Shown: positions 5,781-19,427 of the stretch, one piece after another
How positions within the stretch are numbered: position 1 is the first letter of the stretch
How the letters are laid out: each line of letters starts with the position of its first letter
From: Bacillales bacterium UBA4951
Lineage (GTDB): Bacteria; Bacillota_I; Bacilli_A; RFN20; CAG-826
NCBI GenBank assembly: GCA_002397465.1
Contig: DHAP01000002.1
Span: 1,509-65,508, forward strand
Reading direction: 5' to 3'
Length of the DNA: 64,000 bases
Notes under the pieces: model-generated
What the model was told of the DNA's origin: nothing
The model's input: the letters and a program-made list of their open reading frames with translations, nothing else
Database searches by the model: none
Translations under genes and position numbers: made by a program

Positions 5781-6542
5781 TTATTTGCTCTTTATGGCCT
5801 TAGGAGCCTTGGGGCAGAATGTCTTCTTTTTAGTGATAGGAAGAGTGACGAACAAGACGAAATAAACGACCGAGAAGATGAACAAGACATAACAGCCGGT
5901 GTCCGCCATGTTGGTGCCGTTTTGATTGGTGGCGCCAGTCAACAAGATGGTGTTGACAAGCGAAACTACGAGATTGGCAAGATTGAGGCCAAATGACCAG
6001 AACCAGAAAGTCCTTCTGGAAGTGGGGTCAAGCCATAAGCCAATGCTCAAGAGAGCGGAGGATAAGAACAAAAGAGTTTCAATCCAGGCCCCGATGGTTG
6101 GCCAAGCGCTGATTTTGAAGAGGGTTTGATAGAAATCGAATCCAGCCGACATTGAGAGCTGGGAACCTATTATGACATCTGTTTTGAAATACGAAAGGAA
6201 CGAGAGGACGATGGCAATCACGATAGCGGACATGCAGTAGATGAAGGCCCCGTAGTAACGTTTCCCGATGCCTTTTTCCTCAAGGCTGGGGTTTCTGGCC
6301 ACCACGACGGTCGAGACATTCGTGTCCGGATTCTTTCTTTCGCCATTGATGATCTCGTCGATTCCGACTTTATAGAAAGAAGCCAGTTTCTCAAGCGTGG
6401 CGATGTCGGGCACCGAGTCGCCGCTCTCCCATTTGGAGACTGCTTGCGGTGAGACTTGAAAAATATCCGCCTCATCCTGCTGACGAAGGTTCTTTTCGTT
6501 TCTCAGCTTGGTTAAAAACGTCCCCATTTTCATTTTGTCCAT
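5781..6542 (-). CDS. XRE-family HTH protein fused to a multi-TM domain
   Basis: N-terminal HTH (LRNEKNLRQQDEADIFQVSPQAVSKWESG) followed by 4-5 hydrophobic helices. Start chosen at MDKMKMG, 7 nt after AAGGAGG. Confidence 0.75.
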   Translation of the reverse strand: MDKMKMGTFLTKLRNEKNLRQQDEADIFQVSPQAVSKWESGDSVPDIATLEKLASFYKVGIDEIINGERKNPDTNVSTVVVARNPSLEEKGIGKRYYGAFIYCMSAIVIAIVLSFLSYFKTDVIIGSQLSMSAGFDFYQTLFKISAWPTIGAWIETLLFLSSALLSIGLWLDPTSRRTFWFWSFGLNLANLVVSLVNTILLTGATNQNGTNMADTGCYVLFIFSVVYFVLFVTLPITKKKTFCPKAPKAIKSK

Positions 6543-13441: not shown

Positions 13442-14320
13442 TTAGATACCGGCTTCAATGCTTGCTATCGTTTTTTCGATGCTTCCTCCTCCTGGGCTGT
13501 CGCCTGGGTCAATCGAATCGACGACGAATGACAAGGTATAGAGTCCGCCTGGCTTGTCGAGGACATAGACATCGTGGGTGCCGACCTCAACGTTATACAA
13601 GCTAAAGACCTTTTCATCATTTTTGATGAAGACGAAACGGTAGTTGCTCCAATAGGAGAAGTCATTGGCTATGTCTAACGTATATGTGGCATAACCATCG
13701 ACGAGGCAGTGGCAGTTCCAGCTGAGGCCATAATAGGCGGTCCTCTTCACGTAGGCTGGGGTGTGGATGGTCGAGGTGTAGTAGGTCTTGACGCTGTTAC
13801 GCTCAACGCCCTTGACCTTGACTAGATATTCGGTGTCATAGTCGAGTTCCGAAACCGTGCTCTGGTATTCTTTGGACTCGCTCACGTCGTATGTGTAGGT
13901 CTTCCCATTGCCTTCGAAGCTCAGGCTCATCTGGATTTTGCTTTCGTTTGCGATGCTCAGCTCATAAGAGATGGTATTCTCGGATACGCTCAAGGAGTCC
14001 ATGGAGACGGTAGGGGTGGTGACAAAGAAATTCGTGGCCACCAAATAGGTTCCGATGAAGAGGGTCGCGGCGGTGGCAAGTAATCCATAACGGAGGGCCT
14101 TGGCGACTTTGACGCTGGTCTTGGCTTTCTTCTTTTTGTCCTTCTCGCTGACCGGCGGGAAAGAGCCATACTGGCTGGCTGATGGCGATTCTTTTTCAAT
14201 CGCCTCTTCGTTTCCGCCTTGCTCTTCGCTCTCTTCGTCGGAGACGAAAGGCTTGCCAAAGAGATCGTTCTCTTCAGTCTCGGCGATGGGATTTTCTTCT
14301 TTTTCCTTACCCGTGGACAT
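13442..14320 (-). CDS. membrane protein: acidic cytoplasmic N-terminus, one TM, beta-rich extracytoplasmic domain
   Basis: 292 aa. TM LLATAATLFIGTYLVATNFFV. It overlaps the upstream gene by 14 nt and lies 18 nt upstream of the MscS gene. Confidence 0.6.
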   Translation of the reverse strand: MSTGKEKEENPIAETEENDLFGKPFVSDEESEEQGGNEEAIEKESPSASQYGSFPPVSEKDKKKKAKTSVKVAKALRYGLLATAATLFIGTYLVATNFFVTTPTVSMDSLSVSENTISYELSIANESKIQMSLSFEGNGKTYTYDVSESKEYQSTVSELDYDTEYLVKVKGVERNSVKTYYTSTIHTPAYVKRTAYYGLSWNCHCLVDGYATYTLDIANDFSYWSNYRFVFIKNDEKVFSLYNVEVGTHDVYVLDKPGGLYTLSFVVDSIDPGDSPGGGSIEKTIASIEAGI

Positions 14321-15140
14321 GGATGAACCTCTTTCTTAATATCGTGGAGCCGGATGAGAGAATGGTCCGATAGGCGTCTCCGCTGTAATCGGATAGATCA
14401 AAGACAAGCTCGATTCTTAAAGGCAAGTGGCCGAGGCATTTGACTCTTCTGGCATCGCCGGGGACCAATCCTTTTTCTTTAAGGGATTCGACGTTAACAA
14501 CTTCTCCCTTCGAGTAACTCTTTTCGATGTTCTCAAGGTTGACCGGGTATTCCTTTCCTTTTGGATAAGGGACCTCCTTGAGCTTTGGCACACGTTTGAC
14601 GGGTTTGGCTTTTCTCTTCTTCCTCTTGACTGGCTTGGTTTTGGCCTTAGCTGGAGCTTCTTCAACTACTGGGGCAACCACTGGGGCTACCGTCTCTTCG
14701 ACTGCAGGAGCAGTTTCTTCAATAATGGGTGTTGTCTCTTTGACTTCAGGGGCAGTTTCAACGACAGAGGGGGCGGCTTCAGCAACGACTGGAGCCTCTT
14801 CTATTTTCACTGGTGTCTCTTCAACAACGGGCGCAGCAACTGGAGCAACGACTGGCGCAATGGCCTTGGCTTTATTCTTGGCGTTAATGCCCATGATGAT
14901 GAAGACCAATGAGGTAGCCAAAAGGATTCCCATGGCGACGGGACCATAGACGCTGGAACCGAATCCAAGGGCTATAAGAGGGATAAAACTATGCAAATCC
15001 CTCTTATTCTTCTTGTCTTCGTATTCTTTTTTGCATTGGACGTAAAAGAAGATTGAGGCCAATAGGACGAGGAGGGACAAGAGATCTCCTCCGATCCATA
15101 AGAGGGAAGAGGCATCGATGCTAGAGGTAAGGATGATCAT
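14307..15140 (-). CDS. membrane protein with Pro/Val/Glu-rich repeat linker and uL15-like C-terminal domain
   Basis: 277 aa. It has N-terminal TM helices and an (A/E)PVV/EET repeat tract. The C-terminal KEYPVNLENIEKSYSKGEVVNVESLKEKGLVPGDARRVKCLGHL...SGDAYRTILSSGS tracks the C-terminal half of bacterial ribosomal protein L15. ATGA overlap with the upstream gene. Confidence 0.6.
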   Translation of the reverse strand: MIILTSSIDASSLLWIGGDLLSLLVLLASIFFYVQCKKEYEDKKNKRDLHSFIPLIALGFGSSVYGPVAMGILLATSLVFIIMGINAKNKAKAIAPVVAPVAAPVVEETPVKIEEAPVVAEAAPSVVETAPEVKETTPIIEETAPAVEETVAPVVAPVVEEAPAKAKTKPVKRKKRKAKPVKRVPKLKEVPYPKGKEYPVNLENIEKSYSKGEVVNVESLKEKGLVPGDARRVKCLGHLPLRIELVFDLSDYSGDAYRTILSSGSTILRKRFIHVHG

Positions 15141-17938
15141 GCTTTGGCCTCCTCTTTCTTCTCGTTTCTCTTATAGCCCCATGCCAAAGCGCTTAAGGCC
15201 AAGATGAAGTATCCGACACATAAGGAGATATGGCAGATGGTGCAGCCAGAGAAGATGCTCATTATGAGCAAGAACCCGGCATAGGAGATAGAGACGCCGA
15301 TAGATATGGCGTCGTAGTGTTTCCTCTCCAAGACCAAGAAATAGAGGGCAAAGAACAAGGCGAAGATGATGATGCCAACGATGGTGATCCAGTGGTAGAA
15401 GCAGGGGCTCTCGGGAATCCCCGTCTCGACTTCTGAATAGGCCTTATAAGCCTTGGAGACATAGGTGTTGATCTCTTCCTTCGTCGTGGCGTTGTCGATC
15501 TTGTCGGTGTAGAAGTTCTCAATCCTCTGAAGCTCGTTTAAGGACGATTCGCTGTACTCGTTGTTGTCGACGAAGGCTTTGTGTTCCTTGCTGACGAGGC
15601 TCATCTTTTCGATGCCATAAAGCCTCACGTCGACCTTTGTGTAGACTTCGTTATACGCTTCATCGATATCGGCGATGGATGAGCTCGGATATTCCATGGA
15701 GCCGACTTCGATGAGGCCTTCGGCGATTATCTTGTCGAGTTTCTCGTCTTCGCAGGTTCGCTTAAGAGCCTCGATCTTCGCGGTGGCGTCGTCTTTGGTT
15801 TTCTGGAAGTCCACGTGGTTGTCGTTGTCGACGTAAATGTCATCGACCGCGAGCTTAAATTCCGCGATGCTTCCTTCGGTGAGGCTCTTGCCTTCGATTG
15901 TGGCGATGGTTTCATCGATGATCTTGATGACGTTGGGGTTGGTTTCGGTGTCTTTTTGCTCTTTCAGCTTCTCGAGTATCTCGTCTTGATAGGCCTTTTT
16001 GACCCCGACCGGGTCTGGGAAGACATAAGAGACGGTCTGCGGGTCACTGTCGACGCTATAGGTGGCAACCGCGCTTTCGACGATGCTGACGATGGTCTTG
16101 CCGGCGATTGAATAGTCAGTGTCCAAGGATATGTCGCCGTTACCATCGCTAGTGATCGAATAGACGCTTCCGGTGCTGTCGGTGAGTTTATATGATGTGT
16201 TCTTCTTCAAAGAAGAGATGACTCCGTTATCCTCGTCGCTCGTATAGGAAGTCGCTGGGACGCCGTTCTGAATGAGGATGTAATAATCGCTTGTGACTTC
16301 AGGGACCGACTCAAGGCAGTTGGTCTCGCTAGTTGAGGGGAGACGGGTGAGCGAGACGATCTTCCTTCCTTCAAAGCTGTGGCGATAGGTGATGATGCCG
16401 CCTTCATTAGATAGATCAGAGGCGGTCAAGACGCTTGTGGTTCCTTCATCAGTGACGATGCGGTAAGAGGCCCCTTCATCGAGGCCGGAGATGATGCCAG
16501 TGTCATAAGCGGAATCTGGCATGGCTAAAACATCCGGCAAAGTGATGGCGGCCGTCGATAAGGAGGCCGGAGCCTCGACTGTGCTTTGGAAACGGATGAT
16601 AAGGCTGCTCTTGGGGGCGAATGAGAGAGTCGTGTTATCTATCTTCGTGTATGAGGCCCCTCCGTCGGTGGAGTATTCCTCGTTGACGGATAAACCAGTC
16701 AGGCTGACTTTCCCATCGCTCGTCGGGGTTTGGACGACGCTATAGCCAGTCGGGCAAGCGCCAGGGGCGATATAGGCAATGGTGATCGAATCGCTGTTGA
16801 CGAAGTTATCAGGGTCATTCGGCAAATGGACGATGGTGATATCGGCATCGAATAAGCTCGGCTGAATGCTTATCTTGCCATCCGTATCGCTTTGCATCGT
16901 GGTGCCATCGACGGAATAAGAGTCTCCAGAGACCAAACCGGTGATGCAAGAGTCACGGTAGTTGGCTTTGGCATCGCTGGCCGGAAGCATCTTGGCTTTT
17001 GTCGAAAAAGAATAAGCCACGCTGTCGTCTGAGGCGTTGTAATTGGTTTTGGCTTTGTAACGGTAGACGAAACTATAAGAGGTGTTCTCCTCCAAGGACC
17101 CGAATACCGGAGTGTCCACATAAGAGACATCCCCAACCTTTTTATATTCGATTGTTTCTCCTTCGACGCTGATTTCATTAAGGGTGATTGAAGTGTCATC
17201 CTTCTCTTTGACGGTGAGGACCGTCGTAAGAGGGGTGGTGTTTTCGGCGTTGGCCACATCGACGGCCAAACTCGAAGAGCATCCGTTGAACAAATCGCTC
17301 TTGGTTGGCGTGAAGAATATGGATAAGCCAGTGGGGCCTTCGCTGACGCTGGGCTTTGAATCAGGGTTCGCCCAAGCCCAAGTGCCATCGACCGTGATGT
17401 TTCCGATGGCCAAAGACAAAGTGGAGCTCGTGCCGCCAGTCAAGGTCGAACTGCTGAGCGGATCCCCATAAGTGATGGAGGATGAGGTTGGCTTATTTAA
17501 ATCGCCGGCAGACAAATCGAGTTTCGAAATCGTAACCTTGGCCGTTGTCTCAGACTCGGCATAGTTATCGGTTGCCGCTTTTTTGGCCGTGATGGTGGCT
17601 TCTCCGACACCGACCGCGCTCAAAGTGGAGCCATTGATGCTGGCTATCGTCGAGTCGCTTGAGGTATATGTGACTGCGCTTGTTTCGTTTCCGGAATCCG
17701 CCAAAGACAAGGAACTCTTTTCGCCATAGGTCAAAGAGAAATCGGACATTGAGATGGTGTTTGCTTTCTTGGCGATGGTTAAAGTAATGTTCTTTGTGAC
17801 ACTTGAAAACTTGGTCTGATTAGTGGGTGTGAAGACGGCTTCAACTCCGGTCGTTCCTTCTTTGACTGTTGGGATTTTATTTGGATTAGACCAAGCCCAA
17901 GAGCCTGTTACGGTCTCTTTTCCGATACCTAGAGACAA
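15137..17938 (-). CDS. large Ig-like-repeat surface protein, C-terminal portion with triple-TM anchor
   Basis: 933-aa ORF whose only possible start is a TTG. It is in frame with ORF 18077-19105 across one TAA. Repeated TYG...L.GG...WAW.NP modules are present. The C-terminus has about 3 TM helices. Confidence 0.6.
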   Translation of the reverse strand: MSLGIGKETVTGSWAWSNPNKIPTVKEGTTGVEAVFTPTNQTKFSSVTKNITLTIAKKANTISMSDFSLTYGEKSSLSLADSGNETSAVTYTSSDSTIASINGSTLSAVGVGEATITAKKAATDNYAESETTAKVTISKLDLSAGDLNKPTSSSITYGDPLSSSTLTGGTSSTLSLAIGNITVDGTWAWANPDSKPSVSEGPTGLSIFFTPTKSDLFNGCSSSLAVDVANAENTTPLTTVLTVKEKDDTSITLNEISVEGETIEYKKVGDVSYVDTPVFGSLEENTSYSFVYRYKAKTNYNASDDSVAYSFSTKAKMLPASDAKANYRDSCITGLVSGDSYSVDGTTMQSDTDGKISIQPSLFDADITIVHLPNDPDNFVNSDSITIAYIAPGACPTGYSVVQTPTSDGKVSLTGLSVNEEYSTDGGASYTKIDNTTLSFAPKSSLIIRFQSTVEAPASLSTAAITLPDVLAMPDSAYDTGIISGLDEGASYRIVTDEGTTSVLTASDLSNEGGIITYRHSFEGRKIVSLTRLPSTSETNCLESVPEVTSDYYILIQNGVPATSYTSDEDNGVISSLKKNTSYKLTDSTGSVYSITSDGNGDISLDTDYSIAGKTIVSIVESAVATYSVDSDPQTVSYVFPDPVGVKKAYQDEILEKLKEQKDTETNPNVIKIIDETIATIEGKSLTEGSIAEFKLAVDDIYVDNDNHVDFQKTKDDATAKIEALKRTCEDEKLDKIIAEGLIEVGSMEYPSSSIADIDEAYNEVYTKVDVRLYGIEKMSLVSKEHKAFVDNNEYSESSLNELQRIENFYTDKIDNATTKEEINTYVSKAYKAYSEVETGIPESPCFYHWITIVGIIIFALFFALYFLVLERKHYDAISIGVSISYAGFLLIMSIFSGCTICHISLCVGYFILALSALAWGYKRNEKKEEAKA

Positions 17939-18076: not shown

Positions 18077-19105
18077 TTAATAATTTGTAGATGACTGTTT
18101 GTCCGCCTTGACCCTGACAGTGCCCACGCCGACTGCGCTTAAGGTTGCGCCGCTGACGGTCCCAACAGAAGTGTTCAATGACGTATAAGTGACTTTGCCT
18201 GTTCCACTTCCGGATGACGACAAAGAAAGAGCGTGCGTTTCGCCATACTTCATTGAGAAGGAAGTTAAGGAAATGCTATCGGCTTTTTGCGTGACTGTTA
18301 AATCGGTGTAGGCGCTTAATGTAGACAAAGATGAAGTATAAATAGTGCATGTCAGCCTTGTTTTTCCACACTTTAGTATTGTTGCCAACCCGCTTGTTCG
18401 ATCTATTGTCGCCACGGTTTCGTCACTTGAAGTGTAAAGCTTGGCGGTAGGAGTGCCCGTGATCGTCACTTTTGAGGCGAAATTGTATGTCGCGGTTCCA
18501 TAGACAACTGACGCTGTCGAAGAGGCGGCTTTGACGCTTAACGGGGTGGCTACAACGGTGGCGCCGGTCGTGGTGTTTTCTGGCAAACCGCTGGTGGAGT
18601 AGTAAATTTTATTTCCGTTTCCGCTGTTTGTGTAAACATAGCCATTATCGTCAGAATACCAGTTTGCGTCCGATGGAATGTAAATGTCACTCAGATAACC
18701 GGCGCTATAAGTGGATGTATGGTAATTATAATCCGTAGATGGGCCAGTTTCAGTGGTCTTCCACCAAGCCCTGACGTTACTTTCTGAGCTCATAAGCGCA
18801 TCGTAAACAATACCGGCTGCCGAGCCATACAAGCTTGTGGACCAAGGCATATCATAAAATGAGCTGGTTCCGCCGTTTGCTAGATAAACGTTTCCGGAGG
18901 ATGTGTGAAGCGTCTGTGTGTATCCAGTTTGGTTTTTGAAAGCTATGTGACGGATTTTAAAAGCTGACGTGCTGTAGATGGCTATGACTTCGCTTTTGTC
19001 TTTGGTTACGCTTTTCTTATCGACGCTCTCGGAAAATGACGAGCCAGAGAATAACAGGCTGGCACAAAGTAATACGAACAAAGTTTTGATTCCAGGGAAT
19101 CTCAT
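18077..19105 (-). CDS. large Ig-like-repeat surface protein, N-terminal portion with signal peptide
   Basis: Signal peptide MRFPGIKTLFVLLCASLLFSGSSFS. Start taken at ATG 19105, after AAAGGGG. The ORF ends at TAA 18077-19079-equivalent position 18077-18079, in the middle of a repeat module. Confidence 0.6.
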   Translation of the reverse strand: MRFPGIKTLFVLLCASLLFSGSSFSESVDKKSVTKDKSEVIAIYSTSAFKIRHIAFKNQTGYTQTLHTSSGNVYLANGGTSSFYDMPWSTSLYGSAAGIVYDALMSSESNVRAWWKTTETGPSTDYNYHTSTYSAGYLSDIYIPSDANWYSDDNGYVYTNSGNGNKIYYSTSGLPENTTTGATVVATPLSVKAASSTASVVYGTATYNFASKVTITGTPTAKLYTSSDETVATIDRTSGLATILKCGKTRLTCTIYTSSLSTLSAYTDLTVTQKADSISLTSFSMKYGETHALSLSSSGSGTGKVTYTSLNTSVGTVSGATLSAVGVGTVRVKADKQSSTNY

Positions 19106-19427
19106 CTTTAAACAGCCCCTTTGTCTTGTGATTAACAAATCACAAGTGATTTATTATAAACGGAATATGCTCTTAACAAATTAATTATTTTAGTGACTTT
19201 GGCTAAACAAACAGAAAAATACATAATCGGATACAGTGCTCGACAAAGATTAATTTAATGAACTTATTCAATTTCTCTATTTGGAATAGTGCGCCAAAAC
19301 TAAAAAATTCTATTTACGCCCAGAGTTTTTCAAAATAGAGAACAAAAGCCATAAAAAGAGAGGAATAAAATCAGCCACGAAAATTGTAAGGATTTTATAA
19401 ATAGTTCAGTTTGGCGTGCGTTAATGT

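Follow-up and report, generated by a model that had tools for sequence, protein, structure and literature searches.

The stretch of DNA analyzed here (64,000 nucleotides of contig DHAP01000002.1 from Bacillales bacterium UBA4951, referred to as the window) encodes at positions 14307-15140 of its minus strand a small membrane protein, P0001, whose C-terminal domain is homologous to the globular C-terminal half of the bacterial ribosomal protein uL15. The canonical uL15 gene, rplO, is present elsewhere in the genome, so P0001 is an extra copy. Domains of this kind terminate a large, widespread and undescribed group of membrane and surface proteins in gut Firmicutes, here referred to as the uL15-tail family, and P0001 is a degenerate, separately encoded variant. 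On balance, P0001 is probably a fast-evolving member of this family.

Homology of the P0001 C-terminal domain to uL15

An earlier interpretation made from the letters alone (the sequence-only reading) had proposed that the end of this open reading frame (ORF) follows the C-terminal half of bacterial L15, and profile, single-sequence and structural searches all agreed with it. The Pfam profile PF00828 (Ribosomal_L27A) aligned with residues 199-266 over positions 1-70 of its 72 (E 6.5e-4); the score of 20.5 bits in the protein hmmscan is 1 bit under the gathering score of 21.5 bits, and the same stretch reached 23.5 bits, above the gathering score, in a six-frame search of the genome. The bacterial rplO profile TIGR01071 (rplO_bact) matched residues 182-266 over positions 58-142 of 144 (E 4e-9, 36.5 bits), a partial rather than full-length match that falls under the curated cut-off of 77.95 bits. 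When residues 170-277 were used as a single phmmer query against all PDB sequences, 17 of the 18 matches were uL15 chains (best E 2e-5), with alignments beginning at K182, and BLASTP aligned P0001 with the rplO product of its own genome at 29% identity over 86 residues (E 3e-5). Residues 170-277 were also modeled with AlphaFold from an alignment of 82 tails, which gave a core with predicted local distance difference test (pLDDT) values above 90, and at least the first 27 matches returned by Foldseek for this model in the PDB were all uL15 chains (E down to 2e-5; root-mean-square deviation 1.5-2 A over 70-75 residues). As the model leans on the family alignment, it corroborates the predicted fold and does not prove it independently.

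The match to the L15 pattern therefore stands as homology, but the copy in P0001 proved to be unusually degenerate, without glycine and basic signature residues that are common to canonical uL15 and the tail family. Where uL15 carries the signature K-[IV]-L-[GA]-x-G...S-x-x-A...G-G, P0001 reads K-C-L-G-H-L...S-G-D-A...G-S, having lost the Gly of the loop and the second one of the terminal pair. Overall, 12 of the 21 columns common to canonical uL15 and the tail family are kept, and the hydrophobic core positions of the fold are retained. The Gly/Arg-rich N-terminal extension of uL15 (its first ~57 residues) is also missing, and the N-terminal 180 residues of P0001 are made up of transmembrane (TM) helices, an acidic linker and a Lys-rich stretch. 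The sequence-only reading had described this half as unlike L15, and hydropathy and composition bear out its hydrophobic helices, Ala/Pro/Val/Glu linker and Lys-rich stretch; its coordinates for the ORF were exact. The layout of the gene and its product is as follows.

14307..15140, minus strand: P0001, small membrane protein with a uL15-like C-terminal domain; ORF of 277 amino acids (aa) plus stop
15148..15154, minus strand: Shine-Dalgarno sequence GAGGAGG, 7 nt 5' of the ATG at 15140 and within the last codons of the upstream gene (sequence reading)
15137-15140, minus strand: ATGA overlap of the P0001 start with the stop of the upstream 933-aa ORF
15039..15104, minus strand: predicted TM helix 1, residues ~13-34 (hydropathy peak 2.2)
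14880..14993, minus strand: second hydrophobic region, residues 50-87 (37 aa), a single helix or a helical hairpin, followed by NAKNKAKA (hydropathy)
14661..14861, minus strand: Ala/Pro/Val/Glu/Thr low-complexity linker, residues 94-160, net charge -11 (composition)
14550..14660, minus strand: Lys/Arg-rich stretch, residues 161-197, net charge +13, including KRVPK (charge count, alignments)
14337..14549, minus strand: degenerate uL15 C-terminal-domain fold, residues 198-268, a 71-residue core (profiles, phmmer, model and Foldseek)
14310..14336, minus strand: basic C-terminal tail RKRFIHVHG, net charge +3 (charge count)

A Lys-rich loop, KKEYEDKKNKRD, lies between the helix at residues ~13-34 and the hydrophobic stretch at 50-87. 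The positive-inside rule, the +13 stretch and a domain that carries no export signal together suggest that the C-terminus is cytoplasmic. The linker consists of 67 residues (V17, A13, E13, P11, T6). We also considered it as a tandem DNA repeat prone to slippage-driven variation in length, and found this unsupported: a 12-nt unit in 2.4 copies was the sole repeat seen in the linker DNA, and the repetitiveness is compositional.

The canonical rplO, which the sequence-only reading had suggested looking for, encodes 148 aa and was found between rpsE and secY on contig C53 of the same genome (genome G000; 1.54 Mb, 93% complete). P0001 is located outside the spc ribosomal operon, among envelope genes. 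Across the window's order, 145 of 151 sampled genomes had an rplO match, and about 10 also had a tail gene. With a uL15 match from the TIGR01071 profile, a borderline one from Pfam and a second rplO-like gene in the genome, the proposal of a membrane-tethered, non-ribosomal paralog of a uL15 domain in a tightly packed envelope gene cluster held up in profile, structure and genome checks. P0001 is not a unique case, however: a search for homologs with the same fusion led to a very large group of membrane and giant surface proteins terminating in a uL15-like domain, which P0001 belongs to or lies beside.

P0001 has the appearance of a working gene, judging from its conservation between strains and its strong Shine-Dalgarno sequence. 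The only relative found among 5.8 billion clusters, in word-index searches with the whole protein and with the domain only, was a 97%-identical strain variant (P0002), which occurs with unchanged gene order on two independent metagenome contigs. The window and the other strain are 98.7% identical at the nucleotide level over 6.9 kb without gaps. Between P0001 and P0002 there are 7 nonsynonymous and 10 synonymous differences (ratio of nonsynonymous to synonymous rates, dN/dS, 0.21), of which 1 nonsynonymous and 3 synonymous fall within the domain (dN/dS 0.10), and neighboring ORFs have values of 0.13-0.17. The counts are small, and the changes fit purifying selection on P0001. The ATGA overlap and the gene's own Shine-Dalgarno sequence support a translation that would be independent of, but coupled to, that of the upstream gene.

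The uL15-tail family and the placement of P0001

When the P0001 domain was searched for in related genomes, long ORFs and not rplO gave the best matches. These belong to a family of more than 665 proteins of 320-670 aa, some of which carry the name 'uL15 family ribosomal protein' from the NCBI Prokaryotic Genome Annotation Pipeline (PGAP). With an alignment from which P0001 and divergent rows were left out, 470 relatives were confirmed in species-representative genomes, mostly from gut or rumen, and were assigned to Clostridia, Christensenellaceae, Borkfalkia, Gallimonas, Anaeroplasmataceae, Mollicutes, Erysipelotrichaceae and Bacilli. Among 1.84 billion proteins, at least 1,659 clusters at 50% identity matched at E<=1e-10, with lengths of 107-5,835 aa, and among the matches listed the uL15-like domain lay at the C-terminal end or no more than about 100 residues from it. 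The domain was C-terminal in all 80 loci surveyed and lay 70-250 residues past the last TM helix wherever one was detected; about 10 short or truncated ORFs among these loci had no detectable TM helix. Our literature search returned no paper on the uL15-tail family, on membrane-anchored L15 paralogs or on PF00828 in such proteins.

Three architectures were recognized. Type A proteins have an N-terminal TM helix, an acidic linker, a middle domain (MID) of ~115 residues and the tail. Type B proteins begin with a signal peptide and an ectodomain of 800-1,500 residues with Big_3 and MBG_3 repeats, followed by one TM helix, an acidic linker and the tail, and have no MID. After an ectodomain with Listeria-Bacteroides repeats, type C proteins have a TM helix, then a Lys/Glu loop and a membrane hairpin bearing the motif LPFIVLTSHYVDAP, and finally at least one MID and the tail. 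Big_3, MBG and Flg_new repeats were all found in family ectodomains. Two genomes of the window's own genus (G004 and G002) encode type C proteins of 1,900 aa with a signal peptide, ectodomain, TM helices, linker and uL15 tail, and a typical tail gene was present in 5 of 61 genomes of this genus. The tail is highly conserved across two bacterial classes, with near-invariant residues in N-I-D, KVLARG-x-L-D-K, D-F/Y-S, AVKMI and GG, and it retains residues that are also conserved in canonical uL15 (the K of KVL, the loop G, S..A and GG). The domain is mildly basic across the family (median net charge +3 to +5).

Several features of other family members were observed alongside this survey. MID is confidently predicted to be an alpha/beta domain, with pLDDT above 95, and is present in 1-3 copies per protein in many members, for example at residues ~108-225 of L054:5071-6231 and at residues ~1440-1560 and 1625-1745 of the G004 protein (L011:1337-7057). 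Pfam searches with MID from 26 members, including DUF5655 and at E<=1, gave no match except YjbR (0.0095) in two members, and Foldseek gave a weak match to a YdhG-like protein. Many type C members carry, ahead of the cytoplasmic tail, the conserved hairpin motif LP(F/L)I(V/L)LTS(H/Y)Y(V)DAP with a TM helix and KKK behind it; the motif was seen in L011 (residues ~1330-1370), L069, L075, L104, L106 and L118. Some proteins, L106 among them, begin exactly at this motif, as P0001 also seems to. Two members (L048:3736-6231 and L115:4393-6231) have an extracellular ...VTDSMEP... region between two TM helices that recalls serine proteases of the signal-peptidase/LexA type, and this region had no Pfam match at 1e-3. 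In a metagenome-assembled genome of the Bacilli (L006, G028:C2), the tail-family gene at 1486-2649 is located between recR and tmk/holB, among housekeeping genes of replication, and not beside a surface-protein gene.

P0001 shares three traits with the family: the domain is at the extreme C-terminus, past the last TM helix; an acidic low-complexity linker, comparable to those of family members, separates it from the membrane; and its gene is joined to that of a TM-anchored surface protein, by fusion in other members or as the next gene. It has no MID, nor do about one third of the surveyed members (type B). Its N-terminus, MIILTSSIDAS, directly precedes TM helix 1 and is similar to the (I/V)LTS(H/Y)Y(V)DAP part of the membrane-hairpin motif in G004, L069, L075, L104, L106 and L118. 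Pairwise scores of the P0001 core had a median of 94 to family members vs. 63 to canonical L15; a broad hidden Markov model (HMM) of the family scored 34.8 bits vs. 25.7 bits for an HMM of the canonical C-terminal half; and in the maximum likelihood tree P0001 was placed on the family side of a 100/100 split from canonical L15.

A number of results weigh against this placement. Across 23 invariant or near-invariant family columns, P0001 is identical in 12 and conservative in 3 and has lost 8, through the changes ARG to GHL, DK to RI, KMI to RTI and GG to GS; the lost residues include A, R, G, K, M and the second G, and two of them are the glycines that canonical uL15 conserves as well. A profile of typical members (A3) gave P0001 44.2 bits, within the range of canonical L15 (34-58) and well below same-genus members (128-136). 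In the 10 columns that separate the family from canonical L15, P0001 agrees with the family in 1, with canonical L15 in 2 and with neither in 7. The KRVPK/RRxPK motif of canonical type was found in 0 of 186 family members. The end branch of P0001 measures 3.5 substitutions per site, and an approximately unbiased (AU) test did not reject its grouping with canonical L15 (p 0.29).

Several of these results would fit P0001 being an independent or very early offshoot of rplO, in which a duplicated 3' half of the genome's own gene (residues ~58-148) was captured behind membrane helices; its architecture would then be convergent with that of the family, or P0001 would represent the family's ancestral state. 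KRVPK in P0001 is at the position of RRLPK in the rplO product of its own genome, with 16 residues from the P to the N of VNL in both, and both the TIGR01071 and the PDB uL15 alignments begin there. When the basic stretch was shuffled, KRVPK arose at that position with a frequency of 2e-4. P0001 also has the canonical LG instead of the family LA, and the canonical VN. However, KRVPK lies within a stretch rich in Lys, Arg, Pro and Val and turned up somewhere in that segment in 1% of shuffles. The core pairwise scores, the HMM comparison and the maximum likelihood bipartition favor the family instead, as do the family-type D-Y-S motif, the architecture, the membrane motif ILTS..DA, the position after a giant surface gene, and the occurrence of typical members within the same genus. 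We therefore regard an origin directly from rplO as unlikely, and membership in the uL15-tail family, with rapid divergence, as the better account of P0001.

Neighboring genes and a possible docking role

P0001 is flanked closely on both sides by genes of the same strand.

15137..17938, minus strand: upstream gene, surface protein, 933-aa ORF with ~3 predicted TM helices at its end and the tail KRNEKKEEAKA, proposed partner of P0001 (dN/dS 0.165)
13442..14320, minus strand: downstream gene, 292 aa, with an acidic N-terminus, one predicted TM helix and a beta-rich ectodomain, overlapping the P0001 3' end by 14 nt (dN/dS 0.13)

The arrangement of a large surface gene followed by a tail gene is recurrent. 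Among 36 complete short family genes, 12 were located at most 400 nt downstream of a large ORF on the same strand, and 8 of these 12 upstream ORFs were TM-anchored and ~1,000-1,800 aa in length, with one terminal TM helix, a short basic tail and gaps of 0-70 nt to the next gene. Flg_new/MBG surface repeats were confirmed in 3 of 4 upstream ORFs scanned. The window has the same layout as those 8 loci, with P0001 directly after the 933-aa surface ORF. That the tail is either fused to a surface protein or encoded as the next gene argues that the two act together. No synteny was found between the window and the same-genus G004 locus, and a BLAST comparison of the 933-aa ORF with the G004 ectodomain revealed no similarity.

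The junction between the upstream protein and P0001, KKEEAKA/MIILTS, is similar to KKEPAKAMSIAGFLPFIVLTS in the G004 protein, and the two ORFs were considered as a single gene split by a frameshift. We rejected this: the topology of the fused product would be awkward, independent assemblies show an identical split, and the P0001 start is served by a strong Shine-Dalgarno sequence of its own. The 933-aa ORF and P0001 are taken here as a stable two-gene arrangement, possibly of split-gene origin. Separately, an in-frame TAA at 18077-18079 (minus strand) divides the surface-protein gene itself into a 353-aa ORF (18077-19138) and the 933-aa ORF (15137-17938). The second strain (L043) has the same TAA, and both parts have dN/dS of ~0.17, so the split is stable, is no assembly error and does not clearly mark a dead gene. 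A Trp-to-stop change in L043 (window 15137-15180, L043 ~5962-6004) ends the 933-aa ORF 14 codons earlier; as it removes both KRNEKKEEAKA and the ATGA overlap, the extreme end of the upstream protein is dispensable.

The genome of the window contained neither a penicillin-binding transpeptidase (PF00905) nor a sortase at 93% completeness, and its single Mur_ligase_M match is a protein of 425 aa, which we presume, as a guess, to be FolC. The host organism is probably wall-less, in which case its surface proteins would be anchored in the membrane only. Our best explanation, held tentatively, is that P0001 is a separately translated small membrane protein that serves in trans as a version of the tail fused to surface proteins in hundreds of gut Firmicutes species; this assessment covers the trans tail and the following docking mechanism as one reading. 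P0001 would be made in step with the upstream surface protein by means of the ATGA overlap and its own Shine-Dalgarno sequence, and would come to lie beside it in the membrane through its helices. A flexible linker of ~70 residues would then hold out the basic stretch and the uL15-fold domain, which could dock to a conserved, housekeeping and probably polyanionic cytoplasmic partner, with the ribosome or ribosomal RNA (rRNA) as the leading candidate. This would connect the surface protein with the inside of a cell that apparently has neither wall nor sortase.

A conserved housekeeping partner is suggested by three features of the family taken together: the tail is conserved across two classes, ectodomains are freely variable, and the tail is not accompanied by a gene for a partner. 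No neighbor gene conserved across the family was found, and a neighborhood of pseudouridine synthase, AlaX-like and thioesterase genes was confined to one family sub-lineage. The ribosome or rRNA leads as the candidate because the family keeps residues conserved in uL15 itself, and we consider it possible but doubtful that either is the partner of family tails. P0001 has lost the signature ARG...K loop and the GG pair, so its binding may be weaker or different, and the +13 stretch may compensate for this or take over part of the role. The most specific version, in which uL15-like tails, fused or separate, dock giant surface proteins to ribosomes or rRNA and a fast-evolving P0001 keeps an RRxPK-type contact and a polybasic arm, seems unlikely to be correct in full. 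Two points tell against the docking mechanism: the core of the P0001 domain has a net charge of -1, and uL15 is not known to be situated at the ribosome exit tunnel, which leaves a simple picture of ribosomes held at the membrane with no obvious geometry. Net charge did not distinguish between the hypotheses.

Other roles for the domain must be weighed against this mechanism. The uL15 fold may have been reused as an oligomerization or protein-binding knob, so that the tail docks to a protein or acts as a purely mechanical anchor, keeping TM-anchored adhesins from being pulled out or linking them to a cytoplasmic scaffold, with no involvement of RNA or the ribosome. The presence of the tail on many unrelated adhesin-type ectodomains would fit such a role, as would the membrane being the only anchor in a genome with neither sortase nor transpeptidase, and the modest charge of the family domain and of the P0001 core. 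However, the residues that the family shares with uL15 fit the retention of an ancestral kind of ligand, no conserved partner gene is found nearby, and many members add a second domain with weak YdhG/YjbR-like resemblance; a purely protein-based or mechanical role therefore appears improbable to us, though it is the main alternative to the ribosome or rRNA. The extent of divergence could instead mean that the giant surface gene is breaking up and that P0001 is a leftover whose domain does nothing specific. The loss of 8 of 23 conserved residues, the very long branch, the single strain variant as the only relative, the in-frame TAA upstream with the tail on a separate ORF, and the shorter upstream ORF in the other strain are all in line with decay. 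Yet the 277-codon ORF is intact in independent assemblies, its dN/dS is 0.21 (0.10 in the domain, from small counts) beside 0.13-0.17 in the neighboring ORFs, the Shine-Dalgarno sequence is strong and ideally spaced, the hydrophobic core positions are kept, and the layout of giant gene and tail gene recurs in unrelated lineages, and we give decay only a small chance. Least plausible by far is that P0001 takes the place of uL15 in a subset of ribosomes, which would thereby be covalently attached to the membrane. A true uL15 fold and an RRxPK-like motif are compatible with an alternative subunit, but P0001 is devoid of the whole Gly/Arg-rich N-terminal extension, which in canonical uL15 threads into the 23S rRNA, its conserved glycines are gone, and canonical rplO is present in nearly all sampled genomes of the order. 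We consequently retain the trans tail, docked to a housekeeping partner, as the working explanation.

To our knowledge, it is rare for a ribosomal protein to be reused as a module elsewhere, and here membrane and giant surface proteins in more than 1,600 clusters from gut and rumen Firmicutes have half of uL15 as their standard, probably cytoplasmic, end-piece. The identity of the partner would explain how the largest surface proteins are anchored or controlled in poorly known bacteria, some of them apparently wall-less, and could reveal a new contact between membrane and ribosome or between membrane and RNA. If docking to the ribosome were true, the cell surface of gut Firmicutes that have small genomes and are partly wall-less would be structurally and directly connected with the translation machinery. 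P0001 taken alone is a species-restricted outlier that adds the twist of degeneracy combined with a KRVPK of canonical type, and the surprise lies in the family. It is a natural mutant in which the fold is kept and the signature loop is lost, so that setting it against a typical tail would reveal the important residues.

Comparison with known systems

The closest characterized protein is bacterial uL15 itself (RplO; TIGR01071, PF00828), which P0001 resembles in fold and in a collinear sequence match that begins with the RRxPK motif and extends as far as the GG region at the C-terminus. P0001 differs from it in having membrane helices, an acidic linker and a Lys-rich stretch in place of the N-terminal extension, in its location outside the spc operon, in scores below trusted cut-offs, and in the absence of the loop glycine and of one residue of the terminal GG. 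It is similar to the uL15-tail family (the long forms named 'uL15 family ribosomal protein' by PGAP and the tails of 1,000-5,800-aa proteins) in the extreme C-terminal position of the domain after TM helices and an acidic linker, in its link to a giant surface protein (here next door), in the ILTS..DA motif, and in its best pairwise, HMM and tree affinity. Unlike typical members, it has no KVLARG..DK or AVKMI..GG, no MID and no ADELITDSLAKNL-type helix, carries a +13 Lys/Arg stretch with KRVPK, and has no close relatives outside its own species. Mitochondrial Mba1/mL45 and the C-terminal tails of YidC-type proteins tether ribosomes at the exit tunnel and are not derived from ribosomal proteins. 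They share with P0001 a basic cytoplasmic tail on a membrane protein, a likeness that would be one of functional analogy alone, with homology not expected.

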